From: Dictyostelium discoideum
Lineage: Eukaryota
DNA: 64,000 nucleotides
NCBI GenBank assembly: GCA_000004695.1
Contig: CM000152.2
Span: forward strand, 960,001-1,024,000
Direction of reading: 5' to 3'
Shown: positions 5,453-44,447 of the stretch, piece after piece
Layout: each line of letters starts with the position of its first letter
How positions within the stretch are numbered: position 1 is the first letter of the stretch
Position numbers and translations under genes: made by a program
The notes under the pieces: model-generated
Seen by the model: only the letters and a program-made list of their open reading frames with translations
Told to the model about the DNA's origin: nothing
The model's database searches: none

Positions 5453-5914
5453 TTATTGTTTATAATCTATATTTGGATCTTTAATTTCCCCAGGATTATT
5501 ATTATCGTTATTATTATTGAAATGGTTATCTAAATTATCTAAATTATTAAAATTATTTTCTTCATCACGATTATCATTATCATTACCATTATCGTTATCA
5601 GTTGTAGTAGTAGTAGTAATTTCACCATAAGTATTTCTTCTTAAAAAACCTTGATCACCAACCCATTTCTTTTTATTGACAATATATTGTTTATTATTTT
5701 GTCTAATTAAAGTATCAATTAATAATTTCAAAGATTCAACCAATGAATCACAAACTTGTTCACTTTCACCCAATGATTTCATTGATAGAATAGTTGCCTC
5801 CATTGTTGAAATTCTATCAACTTGTGGTTGACTTCTAATTGTATTAAATAATGATTTAAATTTTAAATCTCCAAATTCTAAATGTATCTATTTTTAATTA
5901 AAAAAATTAGTGTA

Positions 5915-6005
<91 letters not shown>

Positions 6006-7016
6006 TAATAATAAAAAAAAAATAATAAAATAGTATACTCTTTTTATATCTTTTGGTATCCTTTTATTAAGTGATTTTGCATTATTCCAAGTACCATCAG
6101 CAATAATAATTGTTAATTTCTCTAATTTATCAATATCAGAACCATCTTTAAAATTAATTTTTTTAATTGAATCTGTAATTGTAGTAATATCATTCTCGAA
6201 ATCATCATCATTAAGATTTTCTTTTTCATTTATTTCATTATTATTTAAATTTTTTTTAAATAATTTATCATTATCTAAAATTATTGATTTTGATTTTAAA
6301 ACATCTTTAATATTAATTGAATCTTTTGAAGGGAATAAAACAAAAGTTGAATCTCTTGAAGATGATTCTAATTTTTTGAAAAATAATTCCTCATCTTGTT
6401 TTTCACCCATTATATAGATTTTTGAAGATGATGAAAAAGTTTGATTATTTATATTATTATAAATTGATGAAGAGTAGTCTGGTGACATTGTTGTTGAATG
6501 ACCACCACTGCCACTGCCACTACCACTACCGCCATCTCTATTCTTAAAATTACTTTTATCACAAAGTAATAATAATTTACCTGTATTACTTGCTCTACAC
6601 CATTCATTTGGATGAAATACAAAGATATATTCATGTTTTAAATCAACTTTATTCACTTTTGAACAAATACAATTTGTTAAGAGTAACCAACAATCATTAC
6701 ATTTTAAATCCTCTTTAAAGTATGAGAATTTTCTTTCCTTAACACCATCATTAATTTGAGTGTAAATTAATTTATTAACTTCTCTATTCTCTCCTGATAT
6801 CGGTTTAACAAATTCTTTTTTAAATTCCATTTTATTTAATCTTCTTTCATTATTAATTTCTTTTCTAAATTTTCTTTTAATTTCATTATTACCATTTTCA
6901 TTTTCATTTTCATTTTGAATTGTTGATGTTAAATTTTGTATTGGTGGTGTTGAATACATAATATTTGTTTGTTTTAGTTTTGAAATTGAATAATAAAGTT
7001 TACTTCTAACAAACAT
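5453..7016 (-). CDS. DTW-domain protein (DTWD-family tRNA-uridine aminocarboxypropyltransferase-like). Exons 6039..7016 and 5453..5887 (minus strand).
   Basis: N-terminal Cys cluster CNDCWLLLTNCICSK and the defining motif LTIIIADGTWNNAKSL (DGTW). Intron 5888..6038 has donor GTATAC and acceptor aaaaatag and contains an (ATT)n tract. Both exons are in phase 0. Confidence 0.7.
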
Positions 7017-7113
7017 ATAAAAAAAAAAAAAAAATGAAAAATAAAAAAATCTGAATCGAAAAAAAAAAATAATGGAGAGGGGTAAGGTTAAAAAATTTTA
7101 ATGGAAATTTATG

Positions 7114-8064: not shown

Positions 8065-9744
8065 TTATGGTTTAGGAATAAAATCTTTTAATGATTCTGT
8101 AATTGATTGAATATCTAAATTTAAAGTTTTAATGATAAATGAAGCAATATCTATATTATTTATATTACCTCTTAAGATTGGATCAATATAATTATCAACT
8201 ATTTCAGTTTGATGATCTTTTAGACGAGTTTCAAATTTACCTTCAGAGATTGTATCACCAAAGGTGTAGAGATTGACATCCTCACCAGTATGACCACCAG
8301 TGGTGAAACCAATATCAGCATAGTTTGAAACGATACGACCAATCACTTGATTGAGATAATAGGCAGACTTGGTTCTATTGATTTCTTTTAAATCATCTGA
8401 TGTTAATGTGTAACCTGTATTATCGAAAATCAATTTCGTTGGATCAGCACCACCTTTGATAAGTTCTGCCATGAGATCAGCAGATTTATTCACTGTCAAT
8501 AATGTCTCTGGTGACCATGAATATTTTGGATTACCATCGATAACCATTTGATTTGCTAATGTAAGACCACCAGTTTCATGATCTGCTGTCACAATTACAA
8601 TGGTATTACCATCCTTCTCTGCCCATTCTCTAACTAGATTAAAAGTTTGATCAAATGCATCAGTCTCCCAAATCTGAGTGGGTGCGTCATTGATATGAGC
8701 TGCCACATCAATCTTTGAGCCTTCCACCATTAAAAAGAAACCATTTTCATTGTTTTGTGAGATTAAATTCAATGCTTTGGTGGTCATCTCCTGTAGGGAT
8801 GGTTTGGTTGAAAGTAATGTTGGATCTCTTAAACGATCGATTTCCCAAGGTATGTTGTAATCTGCAAAGAGTCCTAAAATTCTACCTGCTTCAACTTGTT
8901 CCATCTCTTGTTTACTCTCAACATACGAGTAGTTGTATTTGCTTGATACAGCATCTTGAAGTGTTTTATTGCTAAAGAATTGTTTACCACCACCCAATAT
9001 CACATCGATCTCCTTGTCCAACAATTGATCGATAATGAATGCCTCGTCATGACGCGTTGCGCTGTGTGCGAAATAGCATGCTGGTGTCGCATCAGAGATA
9101 CGAGTTGTGACGACCAATCCTGTCTTCATACCCAACTTTTTAGCTGCCTCAATGATTGTGCCTGCTGGCTTGCCATTTGCATCGACACCCACTGCATTAT
9201 TATACGTCTTGACACCACTTGCATAGGCCGTTGCCGCTGCGGCACTGTCGGTAACCACACTGTTGCTTGAGTATGTCTTCACTGTGCCCACTATATATGG
9301 GTCTAAATGTAAATGTGCCTGACTTGTACTCTCACCTTTTGTATGAAAACATACTCTTGCCATGGTCAACGCTGCTGGTCCCATACCATCACCAATCATC
9401 ATAATTATATTTGTCTTTTTCTTTGGGCCTTCCCATCCTCTTGGTAATAAAAACACAATCAATAACACAACAGTCACTAGTATTGCCAATGATGTCAATA
9501 TGTAAAAAATTCTCTTATGTGTACTTGTGAATCTTTTCTTGCTATCAAAATCTTCTTCTAATAAAAAGTGGGATACAACTTTACCACCACCACCACTACT
9601 TACACCTGATGATGATGTCATTGGCTCCATTGGAATTGCAGTGGATCCATCCATTTCATCTTTATCATTACCACCACCACCACCACCACCACCACCGCCA
9701 ATACCCGATTCACGGATTGATGATGAATTTGGTGCTTGTTCCAT
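8065..9744 (-). CDS. alp: Alkaline phosphatase (559 aa) with an N-terminal Gly-rich cytosolic segment and one TM helix. Single exon.
   Basis: Alkaline phosphatase family signatures: MMIGDGMGPA..., VTDSAAAATAYASGVKTY (active-site Ser region), VTADHETGG. The uninterrupted 1680-nt ORF is exceptional in 78% AT DNA. The gene symbol is my recollection of the Dictyostelium alp gene and is not verified. Confidence 0.75.
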   Translation of the reverse strand: MEQAPNSSSIRESGIGGGGGGGGGGNDKDEMDGSTAIPMEPMTSSSGVSSGGGGKVVSHFLLEEDFDSKKRFTSTHKRIFYILTSLAILVTVVLLIVFLLPRGWEGPKKKTNIIMMIGDGMGPAALTMARVCFHTKGESTSQAHLHLDPYIVGTVKTYSSNSVVTDSAAAATAYASGVKTYNNAVGVDANGKPAGTIIEAAKKLGMKTGLVVTTRISDATPACYFAHSATRHDEAFIIDQLLDKEIDVILGGGKQFFSNKTLQDAVSSKYNYSYVESKQEMEQVEAGRILGLFADYNIPWEIDRLRDPTLLSTKPSLQEMTTKALNLISQNNENGFFLMVEGSKIDVAAHINDAPTQIWETDAFDQTFNLVREWAEKDGNTIVIVTADHETGGLTLANQMVIDGNPKYSWSPETLLTVNKSADLMAELIKGGADPTKLIFDNTGYTLTSDDLKEINRTKSAYYLNQVIGRIVSNYADIGFTTGGHTGEDVNLYTFGDTISEGKFETRLKDHQTEIVDNYIDPILRGNINNIDIASFIIKTLNLDIQSITESLKDFIPKP

Positions 9745-28829: not shown

Positions 28830-29336
28830 TTAAATAAACGAATAAAAAAAATCTGGTGAAATAAAATCACCTATATCATGTGCGCCAAATGGAACTCTAT
28901 GCCATAACTTTACAAAAAATAAATGGATGTTATTGGAATGGTAAATGATAAGTTTACCTTTAAAATCTTCAAGATGAGATGGATTTACTTTGAGATTTGT
29001 GATTATTATTGGTAAAATATATGCTTCCTTGTAATGCTTTTCTAAATTAATACAATTTTCATAAATGTTTTTTATAGCTTCTTTACCAAGATAGGAACCA
29101 CATGATGAAAATTTAGTATTAATAACAACCATTATATACTTTTTACCAATATGATCATTTGGCAATTCGAAACAAATTCTTATAGAAGTTTGTATTTCCA
29201 CTAGCTAATAAATTAACCGATTTGGTATTATTCGAAGAAATATATACGGTGGTACCTTCAGTTTTTGCTGAGCAAAATTTTATTGCCTTTTGTTAATCTG
29301 TGATTTCCAATTTATCATTGGATCTAAATACATTGT
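28830..29336 (-). pseudogene. Copy 1, truncated: only the C-terminal-domain exon of the B-box/NACHT-like family gene. The exon body upstream of the ORF is degenerate and the copy is cut off at the intron.
   Basis: ORF 28830..29201 is 80-90% identical at the protein level to the C-terminal exons of copies 2 and 3 (...MVVINTKFSSCGSYLGKEAIKNIYENC...WHRVPFGAHD...). Upstream exon sequence carries an in-frame TAA (gat taa caa aag) and a 2-bp deletion relative to copy 3. At about 29331 the sequence jumps from the intron start straight into the shared flank element. Confidence 0.6.
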
Positions 29337-29908
29337 GAAAATGTTAATAAAACAAGTCATAATTTAATGGACGATTTGGATTATCTTTTAAATTAATAAT
29401 GTGAATTTATTCATTCAATTGGATGTCATCATTATCATATAACTCTATGGATTTTAATAATTATTTTCTTTTGTTTTAATTAATTTATTTCCAATATTGA
29501 TAGTTGGTTTTATTTAAATATAAGAATCAAATTCATAAGGTAAACCATATTAAAAAAATGACCAAATATTAAATAAACAAATTAATTTCTTTCAATACCA
29601 TCAATTAATTCTAATTTTAAAGGTGGTGAATGTTTTTAAATAATAAATGTTTTGTTGTTTCATTCAATTGATAATGCTTCTTCTAATGATGTGACACCAG
29701 TTTGGTTGGAACATGAATAAAAAAGGTTTTTCTAATATTAGAAAATTGATTTAAAGTTTTATTATTTTTCCAATTATTATTATTAATAATATTAAAATAT
29801 TTATAAATGTTATAAAAAACATTATCAATTTCATATAAAAATACAAGTTATATTTAGTATTTTTAAAAAATCATCATCTCCATATTTGTGTTTAAATATA
29901 TGAACAAA

Positions 29909-29944
<36 letters not shown>

Positions 29945-30042
29945 ATTTACTAATTTTTAAGTAAAATACAGTTTATACTATTTGTTATTTGTTATTTATT
30001 AATTGAGCATTTCTAAAAATACTCGAGAGATTTTATAATATT
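29337..30042. repeat. Shared ~0.7-kb non-coding flank of the gene-array unit, copy A. Lies 3' of the C-terminal exon of copy 2.
   Basis: Near-identical to 32836..33619 (begins caagtcataatttaatggacgatttggattatc, ends ...ctcgagagattttataatattttataaagaaatgttttctaa). No ORF >60 aa. Confidence 0.6.
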
Positions 30043-32099
30043 TTATAAAGAAATGTTTTCTAATTCTTTGCAGAGGTTTAAATCTGGTGAAATAAAATCA
30101 CTTGTATCATGTGCACCAAAAGATACTCTATGCCATAACTTTCCAAAAAATAAATGGATGTTCTTGGAATGGTAAATGATAACCTTTCCTTTATTATCTT
30201 TAACATGAGATTGTTTTACTTTGAAATTTGTGATTATTATTGGTAAAATATATGCTTCTTTGTAATGATTTTTTAAATTGACACAATTTTCATAAATGTT
30301 TTTTATAGCTTCTTTACCAAGATAGGTATCACAATTTGAAAATTTAGTATAAATAACAACCATTAAATGCTTTTTACCACCACTTAAGTTTGACAATTCA
30401 AAACAAATTCTTATATCGAAGCTTGTTTTTCCATAACCTAATAAATTAACTGAATTGGTATTATTCGAATAAATATGTTCCTTGTTGTCCTCTGTTTTTG
30501 TTAAGCCAAATCTTATTGCATCTTGTGGATCTGTGATTTCTAATTTATCGTTGGATCTAAATATATTCTGAAAATGTTAATAAAATATTCAATATTGAAA
30601 AAAGTGTAATAAAATATGTTTCTGATATCTTACCTATATAACCATTTGGAGGTATGTTGATATAATATAACATTACGTATCTTTACTTCAATAACTGCTA
30701 ACTCATGACTAATATCATTATCCAATGGAAAAAATTTGACTAATTTTGAAATTGTATTATTGCTACTTTCGACAAAGGTGTTGATTTTGTTGAGGATAAG
30801 AATTGCTATATTTTCTTCAAATGGGGTAGATTTAGTATAATCGATTAAAGGGAATTTTGTTAATTTTTCTAAATGTGATATTTTTAATTTTTGTGCAATT
30901 TTATAAAGACCAAAAATTGGTACAAATATGACATTTCCTTCAACCGCTTCGTCATATTGAAGGAATAAGTGGCCAGTGTACGACCAATATTCTATGGTTT
31001 TGTCGCATACTATGGTGCTCCAACTTACTGGTATCCTGCAAATAGAGAGATATAAAATAGTTTCCCAGAATTTATTATCTACTATTTTAACAGATTGAAC
31101 TTTTTTAACCAACTCTATTCCAAGACCACTGATGAAAGATGGAATGTCTATATCGTCTTTTTCAATGTTTTTCATTAATTCTAAATCCAATAACCACTGA
31201 AGGTATCTTGGAATTACACCAAGATCTCTAATAAATATGATAAATAATTTATCTTCTAATATTGTGGTCGTTGGTTTATTCTGGAGTATTGGTATATTAA
31301 ATCTATGTTTGATTATATCTTTACAAGATTCATAGCTTAATGGTGTTAAAGTAATTGATTTATAAGTCCACTGTGAGAGATGAATTTCGTGTTGTAAAAT
31401 TGTTGTGGTACCAGTTAATATTGGAATTATAAAAACATTACTAAGGGAGGCATCAGATTGGTCGGTTCCTTTACATCTATAAAATCCCAACAATTCTATC
31501 ATTTGCTTTATAAAATGTTGATTTTGTGTACAAGCTATTTCGTGTGCCATGGGAAATTCATCCAAGTGGATAAGAATAGAGAGAGTGTTTTTACCTCCAT
31601 GACCATGGTCACGACTATACAACTTAGAAATATAATGCAAAACATTTTTTACAGTAAACAAATGTTTCTCTTCTGTGTATAAATTTAAATTTGATCCAGC
31701 CAATGATGAACCTAAAACTCCTCTGATGAATAATCTTTTTGCGAGAGCCACTTGACAGGTATCTTCTTTTACTTCTTCAATTGAAATTGCATCACCGCCA
31801 CCGTTGAAGTCAATAAATATATACATTAAATTCTTCATTGTTTCTGCTAATTCTTTATTTCTCTTCCATTGATTACTCTTTAAAAAATTCCAACACTCTC
31901 TGCCAAATCTTGTTTTACCAATACCAGAACCAGTTAAACATTGTAAAAAGTAGTGATTTACTCTTTCTTTATCATTTGCAATAAAATAGTTGAACATTTC
32001 AATCAAATAATTTTCGATTTCTTTAAATTGGTTTTCTCTATCTTTTAATGGGAGATCAATACTACTATCAATTGATTTAGTTTCAACCATATTTTGCAT
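30043..32099 (-). CDS. Copy 2, apparently intact: NACHT-like P-loop NTPase with an unassigned C-terminal alpha/beta domain. Exons 30634..32099 and 30043..30556 (minus strand). A B-box-like zinc-finger ORF (32174..32425) lies immediately 5' in the same frame.
   Basis: Walker A FLQCLTGSGIGKTRFG, Walker B LSILIHLDEF, TTR-like motif FIIPILTGTTT (NACHT-type order). 489-aa ORF ends ...KWLY with canonical donor ag|GTAAGA at 30633 (phase 2). Acceptor tttag at 30558-57 joins in frame to RSNDKLEITDPQDAIRFG...KHLMVVIYTKFSNCDTYLGKEAIKNIYENC...WHRVSFGAHD...ISL*. Alternative intron (donor GTAAAG after ...VIE with acceptor ttttcag) is also in frame. Confidence 0.6.
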
Positions 32100-32173
32100 T
32101 AATTTATGTAACTCTTCTAAATCTATAAGTTTTATTAGAGGATTTAAATAATTATTAGTATTTCTAATTAGAA

Positions 32174-32425
32174 TTAATTTTTAATGATGTTAAATGAAAT
32201 ACTTTGAGCTGGCTTTCTTTTTATGAAAAAATTGAATTTAGTTTCTGTAGGTGGAATTGGAGCTTCAATATGTGTTATGGTAGGTAATAAACTAAGCTTG
32301 TGATGAGGGTGATCTATTATGCATTTTTCGCATAATAAAATCTTACACTGTTTACAATATAAAAGTATATCATTTTCTATAAATTGACAATTATGTTTAT
32401 ATGTACTTATATCATCATTTAACAT
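32174..32425 (-). CDS. B-box-like Cys/His zinc-finger ORF (83 aa). Probable N-terminal module of copy 2, separated from the NTPase ORF by two in-frame stop codons.
   Basis: HNCQFIENDILLYCKQCKILLCEKCIIDHPHHK (C-x10-C-x2-C-x4-C-x2-C-x5-HH). Same reading frame as the NTPase ORF that starts 75 nt downstream; only taa-ttc-taa intervenes. Confidence 0.45.
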   Translation of the reverse strand: MLNDDISTYKHNCQFIENDILLYCKQCKILLCEKCIIDHPHHKLSLLPTITHIEAPIPPTETKFNFFIKRKPAQSISFNIIKN

Positions 32426-32835
32426 TTTATTTGAAAAAAAAAAAAAAAAGAGTGTACTATAAAATAAAAAAATGGGTGTGATATAAAATTTATAGTTTTT
32501 CTGAATAAAAGAAAAAAAAAAAAAAAAAAAATAGTAAATTTTATGTCTTTTTTTTTTTTTTTTTTTTTACTTTTTTTGGGTTTTTTTTTTTTTTTTTTTT
32601 TTTTGGAGGGGAATTATTTTTGAAAAACCAGTTTTAAATGATAATAAAACTATTTATTCATCAAATCTTTCTATAAATCCAAATTAAAACTTTTTTAGTT
32701 TGTTCTTTAAAATCTAATGGTACTTCCATAACAGTTCTAGATATACCAACAAATCTTCTTCTCTTTCTAAAATTAATCCAATCACCTAATAAAATTCCCT
32801 CCAAATTTACAAATTCACCATATGGAAATGAAAAT

Positions 32836-33474
32836 GTTATTAAAACAAGTCATAATTTAATGGACGATTTGGATTATCTTTTAAAATTAATAATGTGGAT
32901 TTATTCTTTTCAATTGGATGTCATCATAACTCTATGATAATTATTTTCTTTTGTTTTAATTAATTTATTTCCAAATATTGGTAGTTGGTTTGATTAAAAA
33001 ATAAGAATCAAATTCATAATGTAAACCATATAAAAATGACCAAATATTAAATAAACAAAATAATTTCTTTCAACAACACCAATTAATTCTACCATTTTCA
33101 TTTTCATTTTCATTTTGAATTGTTGATGTTAAATTTTGTATTGGTGGTGTTGAATACATAATATTTGTTTGTTTTAGTTTTGATTTTAAAGGTGGTGAAT
33201 GTTTTTAAATAAAAAATGTTTTGTTGTTTCATTTAATTGATGTTTCTTCTTAAGATGTACCACCAGTTTGGTTGGAATATGAATAAAAAAAGGTTTTCTA
33301 ATATTAGAAAATCGATTTAAAGTTTTATTATTTTCCCAATTATTATTATTAATAGTATTTTTAATATATATAAATGTTATGAAAAACATTATCAATTTCA
33401 TATAAAAATACAAGTTTATTTATTATTTGTAACAAATCATCATCTCCATATTTGTGTTTAAATATATGAACAAA

Positions 33475-33510
<36 letters not shown>

Positions 33511-33619
33511 ATTTACTAATTTTTAAGTAAAATACAGTTTATACTATTTGTTATTTGTTATTTATTAATTGAGCATTTTCTAAAATTACTCGAGAGTTTT
33601 TAAAATATAAATAAATATT
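32836..33619. repeat. Shared flank element, copy B. Carries a 93-bp insertion (33091..33183) identical to 6891..6983.
   Basis: Aligns with 29337..30042 except for the inserted block accattttcattttcattttcattttgaattgttgatg...gttttagttttga. Confidence 0.6.
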
Positions 33620-34975
33620 TTATAAAGAAATGTTTTCTAATCCTTTATAGAGATTTAAATCTGGTGAAATAAAATCACCTATATCATGTGCGCCAAATGA
33701 TACTCTATGCCATAACTTTCCAAAAAATAAATGGATGTTATTGGAATGGTAAATGATAAGTTTACCTTTAAAATCTTCAAGATGAGATGGATTTACTTTG
33801 AGATTAGTGATTATTATTGGTAAAATATATGCTTCCTTGTAATGCTTTTCTAAATTAATACAATTTTCATAAATGTTTTCTATAGCTTCTTTACCAAGAT
33901 AGGAACCACATGATGAAAATTTAGTATTAATAACAACCATTTTATACTTTTTACCAATATGATCATTTGGCAATTCGAAACAAATTCTTATATCGAAGTT
34001 TGTATTTCCACTAGCTAATAAATTAACCGGTTTGATGTTATTCGAAGAAATATATACGGTGTTAGCTTCAGTTTTTGCTGAGCCAAATTTTATTGCCTTT
34101 TGTGAATCTGAGATTTCAAATTTATCGTTGGATCTAAATACATTCTGAAAATGTTAATAAAATTTTCAATACTATAAAAAAGTATAATAAAATATGTTTC
34201 TGATATCTTACCTATATAACCATTTGGAGGTATGTTGATATAATATAACATTACCTATCTTTACTTCGATAAGTGCTAATTCATGACTAATGTCATTATC
34301 CAATGGAAAAAATTTGAAATTGTATTATTGCTACTTTCGACAAAGGTGTTGATTTTGTTGAGGATAAGAATTGCTGTATTTTCTTCAAATGGAGTAGATT
34401 TAGTATAATCGATTAAAGGGAATTTTGTTAATTTTTCTAAATGTGATATTTTTAATTTTTGTGCAATTTTATAAAGACCAAAAATTGGTACAAATATGAC
34501 ATTTCCTTCAACCGCTTCGTCATATTGAAGGAATAAGTGGCCAGTGTACGACCAATATTCTATGGTTTTGTCGCATACTATGGTGCTCCAACTTACTGGT
34601 ATCCTGCAAATAGAGAGATATAAAATAGTTTCCCAGAATTTATTATCTACTATTTTAACAGATTGAACTTTTTTAACCAACTCTATTCCAAGACCACTGA
34701 TGAAAGATGGAATGTCTATATCGTCTTTTTCAATGTTTTTCATTAATTCTAAATCCAATAACCACTCAAGGTATCTTGGAATTACACCAAGATCTCTAAT
34801 AAATATGATAAATAATTTATCTTCTAATATTGTGGTGGTTGGTTTATTCTGGAGTATTGGTATTAAATCTATGCTTGATAATTTATTTACAAGATTCATA
34901 GCTTAATGGTGTTAAAGTAATTGATTTATAAGTCCACTGTGAGAGATGAATTTCTTGTTGTAAAATTGTTAGGAT
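33620..34975 (-). pseudogene. Copy 3, 5'-truncated and frameshifted: C-terminal-domain exon 33620..34133 plus NTPase 3' part 34213..about 34975. It lacks the P-loop half.
   Basis: NTPase ORF 34276..34899 is about 99% identical to residues about 270-489 of copy 2. A 10-bp deletion near 34318 (relative to 30738 in copy 2) shifts the frame. Homology ends abruptly near 34975 (the corresponding point in copy 2 is about 31400). Intron signals GTAAGA and tttag are conserved. Confidence 0.6.
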
Positions 34976-43638: not shown

Positions 43639-44447
43639 TATTATTATTATTATTATTACATGTAATATAATTCCTTCCGATTGAAATAATGAAAAAATTA
43701 AAAAAATAAAAAAATAAAAAAAAAATAAAAAAAAAATAAAATTTTTTTTTTTTTTTTTTTTTTTTTAATCAAAAATAAATTAAATTGAAAATATTATCAA
43801 CGTTAGATCACAAAACTGTTAAAACTCACATCAACTAATTTTAAAATATAGCTCAACAAATTAAATACTTAAGATAATTTTTTTTTTTTTGGTTTTTTTA
43901 ATCAAAAAATAAATTAAATTAAAAATATTATCAACATTAGATCACAAAACTGCCAAAACTCACATCAACTAATTTTAAACATAGCTCAACAAATAATATT
44001 CTTTGTAATATTTTTTTTTATAATTAAAAAAAAAAAAAAAGAAAAAAAAAAAAAAAAAAAGAAAAAAAGGGAAAGAAAATTAGAAATTTAGAAATTTTAG
44101 GGTTGTACATAAAAATACCAGATTGTACAATTTCTGATTTTTTGTAAATTTAATGTAAAAAAAAACAAATTTATAAATAAGCCACACGATTTTTGATTAC
44201 AACCATTTGATTACAATAAAATTAAAGATTTTTTTTGATATTTTGAAAAGAAAAAAAAATAAAATTTAAAAAAAATAAAATAATTTTTAATGATTTCTTT
44301 TTTTTTTTTATTTTTTTTATTTTTTTTTTTTTTATTTTTAGAACAACCTAGATTTTTTTTTTTTTTTTCACACTACTTTTTTTTTTTTTTTTTAAATATA
44401 GAAATAATAATAAACAAATTTATTTTTTTAAAAAAAAAAAAAAGAAA

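Follow-up and report, generated by a model that had tools for sequence, protein, structure and literature searches.

Distant templated insertions and the capture of DNA fragments, with junctions of the end-joining type, are established phenomena (PMC11724301; PMC5110952), and classical NHEJ is retained in Dictyostelium (PMC6635534). No earlier report of templated insertions in Dictyostelium was found in the literature. The closest described system is the human class 2 templated sequence insertion (TSI/TSIP) of Onozawa and Aplan, for which an RNA-derived patch is the proposed mechanism (PMC5110952). These insertions are short patches from a distant donor that stays intact, they have neither a target-site duplication nor poly(A), their junctions are of the end-joining type (microhomology, microdeletion or non-templated bases) with overlaps of 1-2 nt, and the donor region is transcribed. 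The insertion described here, from D. discoideum chromosome 3, agrees with class 2 in each testable feature, transcription of the donor region being predicted in our case. It differs from the human examples in its amoebozoan host, in that an RNA origin is not needed to explain it, and in having its donor on the same chromosome at a distance of 26 kb.

Fragment capture in yeast (Dna2, Rad27, RPA; PMC11724301) is also similar, since it yields genomic inserts of ~0.1 kb with NHEJ-like minimal microhomology and leaves the target otherwise intact. However, the yeast events follow induced breaks, mostly in mutants, whereas the Dictyostelium event is spontaneous and fixed in a wild-type lineage. A 'fragile-site' origin of the donor would be hypothetical in the Dictyostelium case. 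Filler DNA and synthesis-dependent MMEJ in plants and Drosophila (Pol theta; PMC5728401, PMC7454005) share with our insertion the templated bases and the microhomology at junctions. The inserts of alt-EJ, however, are local and about 2-35 bp long (PMC11724301), whereas the Dictyostelium insert measures 91 bp, its template lies 26.2 kb off, and no deletion accompanies it.

Three further classes can be compared. LINE-type copies (class 1 TSIP, processed retrocopies) likewise bring transcribed sequence to an ectopic site, but class 1 is recognized by a target-site duplication of at least 5 bp together with poly(A), and the Dictyostelium insert shows neither; moreover, it is the 5' end of a gene and contains no mRNA 3' end. 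Transposable elements and MITEs are recognized by terminal inverted repeats plus a target-site duplication, which the insert does not have. The microhomology expected of MMBIR/FoSTeS is present (2 nt and 1 nt), a feature that does not discriminate this route from end joining.

The window, that is, the whole stretch of 64,000 nucleotides that was analysed, contains the donor near its left end. The features of the donor locus are the following.

6890..6983, minus strand: source segment, the 5' end of DDB_G0278491
5453..6959, minus strand: DDB_G0278491, a DTW-domain gene (tRNA-uridine aminocarboxypropyltransferase) of 451 aa, with two exons and an intron at 5888..6038
7019..7034, minus strand: T16 tract upstream of the DTW gene, to which the poly-T rule (PMC3371697) applies

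The two-exon model is 100% identical to the 451-aa DDB_G0278491, and the DTW domain matches Pfam PF03942 (117.8 bits; cut-off 33.7). Read on the minus strand, the source segment consists of a 24-nt leader (6983..6960), the ATG (6959..6957), 23 codons with the ATG counted (MYSTPPIQNLTSTIQNENENENG; M...G) and one more nucleotide; it ends directly past the (GAAAAT)3 microsatellite of the gene. The initial annotation had rightly named the DTW gene start, leader and ATG included, as the source, as the identity of 94/94 bp with the 5' end of DDB_G0278491 confirms. Its figure of 22 codons is one too low, and the peptide given with it itself has 23 residues. The domain begins at residue 86 and the copied residues are all N-terminal to it; no conservation of these residues was found in D. 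purpureum or Polysphondylium. Since the DTW donor gene is intact, the segment was copied, not moved.

According to the poly-T rule, transcription begins ~2 bp past the 3' end of a poly-T tract on the sense strand (PMC3371697). Applied to the T16 tract (7034..7019), it predicts a DTW transcription start near 7017; the fragment would begin ~34 nt further downstream. The N-terminal region of the gene (6890..7016; 8718..8870 in the fetched locus L005, with equivalents in L007 and L008) is polymorphic among assemblies, showing an in-frame indel of 12-15 nt and GAAAAT (Asn-Glu) units that vary in number. An in-frame upstream ATG at 7016 serves as the start in the annotation of GCA_054883475.1 (470 aa); the AX4 protein starts with MYSTPP (451 aa). 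Given the start predicted near 7017, the ATG at 7016 would be nearly leaderless.

Comparison of the window with itself shows that 6890..6983 and 33090..33183 are identical at 94 of 94 bp, both on one strand. The exact copy of 93 bp first reported (33091..33183 against 6891..6983) is indeed identical, although the repeat is 94 bp long and extends one nucleotide further to the left. Each 20-mer within it occurs at just those two sites of the window, on the same strand, and a 39-mer taken from it and allowed up to three mismatches found the same two sites and no others. With the G+C content of the window at 23% and its length of 64 kb, the number of exact 94-mer pairs expected by chance is ~3e-37. 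When the 300 bp flanking source and target on each side were aligned, the similarity did not exceed that of shuffled controls, so that the boundaries of the repeat are sharp. The two copies are separated by 26.2 kb on the same chromosome and have the same orientation.

A small dispersed repeat, or a mobile element, that happens to reside at both sites is a very improbable account of the 94-mer. The segment supplies a single-copy gene with its leader, start codon and N-terminal codons, and in three other assemblies it is syntenic and shows ordinary orthologous divergence. The 64-kb window holds it twice, and the ~100 kb of loci fetched from three diverged assemblies contain it once for each assembly, at the DTW locus. 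The insert has neither terminal inverted repeats nor a target-site duplication, and nothing notable was seen in its secondary structure or snap-back potential (z = 0.27). A retroelement targeted to tRNA genes was considered and rejected, as a search of the 64-kb window for tRNA genes gave none.

The target of the insertion is a non-coding spacer, S21, in the degenerate minus-strand tandem array DDB_G0278511/513/515. The array is composed of the following parts, given here with the inserted copy and the corresponding empty site.

33620..34970, minus strand: G2, a 5'-truncated array copy comprising DDB_G0278515 and a 207-aa ORF
32620..33435, minus strand: S21, the insertion-bearing spacer between G2 and G1
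33090..33183, minus strand: the inserted copy, 94 bp that match the start of the DTW gene exactly, of which 91 bp (33092..33182) are net gain
30043..32425, minus strand: G1, the full array copy DDB_G0278513 of 741 aa
29336..29859, minus strand: S10, the spacer between G1 and G0, 94% identical to S21 when gaps and the insertion are excluded
29602..29623, minus strand: the paralogous empty site in S10, where CAATTAATTCTA is followed directly by ATTTTAAAGG, with the junction at 29613/29614
28849..29352, minus strand: G0, the array fragment DDB_G0278511

S21 and S10 differ at 30 of 503 aligned sites (6%), and their alignment contains one clean gap of 91 bp, in agreement with the earlier statement that the other flank copy does not have the segment. 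The filled site reads CAATTAATTCTA, then the insert (CC...TTTTG), then ATTTTAAAGG, which is a net gain of 91 bp relative to the empty site, with a paralogue diverged by 6%, rather than an orthologous empty allele, standing for the pre-insertion state. The junction overlaps common to donor and target are TA (33090-33091) on the left and A (33183) on the right. No target bases were lost, and there are no untemplated bases at the junctions. A target-site duplication, poly(A) and terminal inverted repeats were looked for at the insert and none was found; its end reads ...GAAAATGGTA, without a poly(A) tract or signal. The 2-nt and 1-nt overlaps, together with the absence of these three hallmarks, support the original proposal of filler DNA from double-strand-break repair or template switching. 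The insert is located 437 bp downstream of the stop of DDB_G0278515 (33620) and 665 bp upstream of the ATG of DDB_G0278513 (32425), and all that it opens at the target is an ORF of 29 codons.

A second assembly, GCA_054883475.1 (chromosome CM142509.1, 6.43 Mb), has the exact 94-mer at the same source and target sites. It departs from the window by one mismatch and 8-9 indels per region (12.6 kb for the array, 9.7 kb for DTW) and hence is a different assembly; it belongs to a clonal lineage shared with the window, and in this sense provides independent sequencing rather than an independent natural lineage. Its junctions are identical to those of the window, which answers the concern, voiced when the repeat was first described, that it could be an assembly chimera. 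With the same insertion, site and source recovered in this non-identical assembly, a chimera is extremely improbable. The Logan collection was searched as well. None of eight ORFs spanning or abutting the junctions is present in the protein collection, and an exact look-up returned no contig for DDB_G0278515 or DDB_G0278491; the sole Logan member found nearby lies on contigs of at most 1.2 kb, too short for the junction.

The polarity and age of the event were addressed with three diverged assemblies, ACTFIR and ACTFIW (labelled D. discoideum) and ACTFIY (labelled cf. discoideum). In neighbouring coding sequence ACTFIR diverges from the window by 0.3-5%. The 5' tract of the DTW gene is in place in all three, with SNPs and indels of its own in each; the variants within the 94 nt include CAAGAT for CAAAAC, an extra TAT, 12-15 extra nucleotides, an A to G change and added GAAAAT units. 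The array locus of each of the three holds one gene with the same neighbours on both sides. The array gene lies at these positions in the fetched loci.

L002, 10001..12479: array gene
L003, 10001..12386: array gene
L004, 10001..12392: array gene

The insert was not found at the array loci of ACTFIR, ACTFIW and ACTFIY, with positive controls that worked. The spacer (S) is absent at the single-copy locus of ACTFIR, and the S marker is absent in ACTFIW and ACTFIY, again with positive controls; in ACTFIW and ACTFIY the absence of both insert and spacer is that of single marker patterns. Because the DTW tract is in place in the three assemblies and the insert was not found there, the DTW copy is ancestral and the array copy derived. 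The insert corresponds to the DTW allele of AX4 and ACTFIT at all variable positions. At the 6% divergence of the spacers, 5.6 differences would be expected per 94 bp and none is observed (P = 0.003), which makes the insertion younger than the spacer duplication. The suggestion that the array copies diverged after duplication is thereby upheld. On these comparisons the transfer ran from the DTW gene to the array, and recently.

The opposite order of events deserves mention here. The segment could have been ancestral to the spacer and lost from the other copy, or its identity to DTW could have been kept by gene conversion, and presence or absence in a paralogue gives no polarity by itself. Both versions are nevertheless highly unlikely, given the 0/94 differences against 6% in the adjoining spacer (P = 0.003), the lineage-specific DTW allele states that the segment carries, and the lack of flanking homology to support conversion.

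The divergence of the compared assemblies is of some interest on its own. Between ACTFIR and the window it reaches up to ~5% in coding and ~10% in intergenic sequence, and the ACTFIW array protein is just 83% identical. Such divergence is far above that usual within D. discoideum. The assemblies labelled D. discoideum (loci L002, L003, L005 and L007) may represent cryptic sister lineages.

The array gene (28849..34970 in the window) is present here as one full and two partial copies and is single-copy at the locus in three other assemblies. Its main exon is 91% identical to that of ACTFIR, compared with 94-99.7% for the neighbouring genes. It is fast-evolving, copy-number-variable and dictyostelid-restricted, and a second paralogue is found nearby in other assemblies. 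The N-terminus of its product gives a weak B-box match, under the Pfam cut-off, and a GSGIGKT motif can be seen by eye. G0 and S10 join inside a 17-bp overlap, TGAAAATGTTAATAAAA (29336..29352), which also occurs in G2 (34146..34162, 17/17) and in S21 (32829..32845, 16/17). The TGAAAATGTTAATAAAA junction is the footprint of a homology-mediated deletion. With its duplications, the 5' loss of G2, the fragment G0 and the 17-bp homology junction, the array locus is structurally unstable in this lineage.

Neither the rest of the window nor the ACTFIR loci showed DNA or protein similar to the spacer S; the best ORF of the spacer has no homologue among 5.8 billion proteins and no Pfam match. The spacer stretch 32664..32934 has an open frame on both strands. 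A poly-T tract at 33475..33506 (minus strand) was considered as the start of an S transcript. The tract is also present at the single-copy locus, and as a start it was rejected, being a duplicate of the poly-A mark at the end of a plus-strand kinase gene. Elsewhere in the window, 43737..44019 holds a short tandem duplication (~150 bp, 87% identical), and a few other dispersed matches of 72-79% identity look low-complexity.

The event is of the copy-and-paste kind: 91 bp were copied from a locus 26.2 kb off, in the same orientation, into a target that stayed intact. We consider that this patch is very probably a distant templated insertion, or captured fragment, made when a double-strand break was repaired by end joining. 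The break would have hit the non-coding DNA that separates two tandem copies of the fast-evolving array gene, in the lineage shared with GCA_054883475.1, and a patch of 91 bp with the DTW 5' end as its template would have entered it. In the course of end joining either a free copy of the donor segment would have been ligated in, or a short synthesis would have been primed on the donor, followed by rejoining. The product would be the same whether it arose by ligation of a captured fragment, by donor-primed synthesis, by a replicative template switch or from a cDNA patch.

A replicative template switch (FoSTeS/MMBIR) would need no two-ended break: the nascent strand in the spacer would anneal through 2 nt at DTW, copy 91 nt and return via 1 nt. 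Templated insertions are produced by MMBIR (PMC8421209); such switches belong to replication or break-induced replication and are often accompanied by more copy-number change or by several switches. Such a switch would account for the microhomology at both switch points, equally compatible with end joining, and for a donor that was copied, not moved, on the same chromosome, in the same orientation and 26 kb away; the locus is also prone to duplication. Yet the strand would have had to return to the exact next base, without loss or duplication, on a single nucleotide, and ligation into a clean break is simpler. There is also one switch segment only, without a copy-number change at the junction. 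We therefore regard the template switch as unlikely, if still the foremost competitor of end joining.

The patch could alternatively be RNA-derived, a 5'-proximal piece of the DTW mRNA having been reverse-transcribed into the break; this seems doubtful to us. The fragment lies fully inside the predicted DTW transcript (start near 7017), and the junction features are as in the class 2 insertions (PMC5110952). On the other hand, the 5' end of the fragment (6983) is ~34 nt past the predicted start, hence it would not be the end of a run-off cDNA; poly(A) is absent, the window holds no tRNA gene, and the sequence read around the target showed no obvious retroelement. The fragment spans no intron, which makes splicing uninformative on an RNA origin. 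The genome of Dictyostelium is gene-dense. A random fragment would for this reason often fall within a transcript, and the agreement with the predicted transcript is weak evidence.

One further feature beside the junction may bear on the choice of donor.

33069..33083, plus strand: target-flank 15-mer TTCAACAACACCAAT, 14/15 complementary to 33140..33154 of the insert (6940..6954 in the source, plus strand)

TTCAACAACACCAAT is situated 7 nt left of the insertion junction. Among random window sites, 0.8% have within 30 nt an equally good match, in either orientation, to some 15-mer of the insert; the test is post hoc, since it was chosen after the match was seen. At the same place in the empty paralogue the match, as read from the spacer alignment, is 13/15, which makes the near-homology older than the insertion. 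Its inverted orientation makes priming of the observed copy impossible. We put forward, as a long shot, that the donor was non-random, in that TTCAACAACACCAAT on the resected left end might have tethered single-stranded donor DNA or the first-strand cDNA of a promoter-proximal DTW transcript, to be joined in afterwards. If true, a homology-guided capture step in break repair, possibly RNA-derived, would be legible from a natural event. The near-homology could also be a coincidence in sequence rich in CAA and ACC.

The repair patch itself is most likely a neutral, functionless scar: it brings no promoter, opens an ORF of 29 codons only and lies hundreds of base pairs from coding regions. A function is not indicated. 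The finding leaves the known mechanisms of repair unchanged, and an effect on either gene is not indicated. What it offers is a clean natural distant templated insertion in a model amoeba, one more instance of a type of repair scar already known, and sequence is enough to read its polarity and relative age as well as its donor and its paralogous empty site. The insertion could serve as a marker of the clonal lineage common to the window and GCA_054883475.1. In general, it provides a natural counterpart to experimental work on break repair in Dictyostelium and flags the array DDB_G0278511-515 as unstable.
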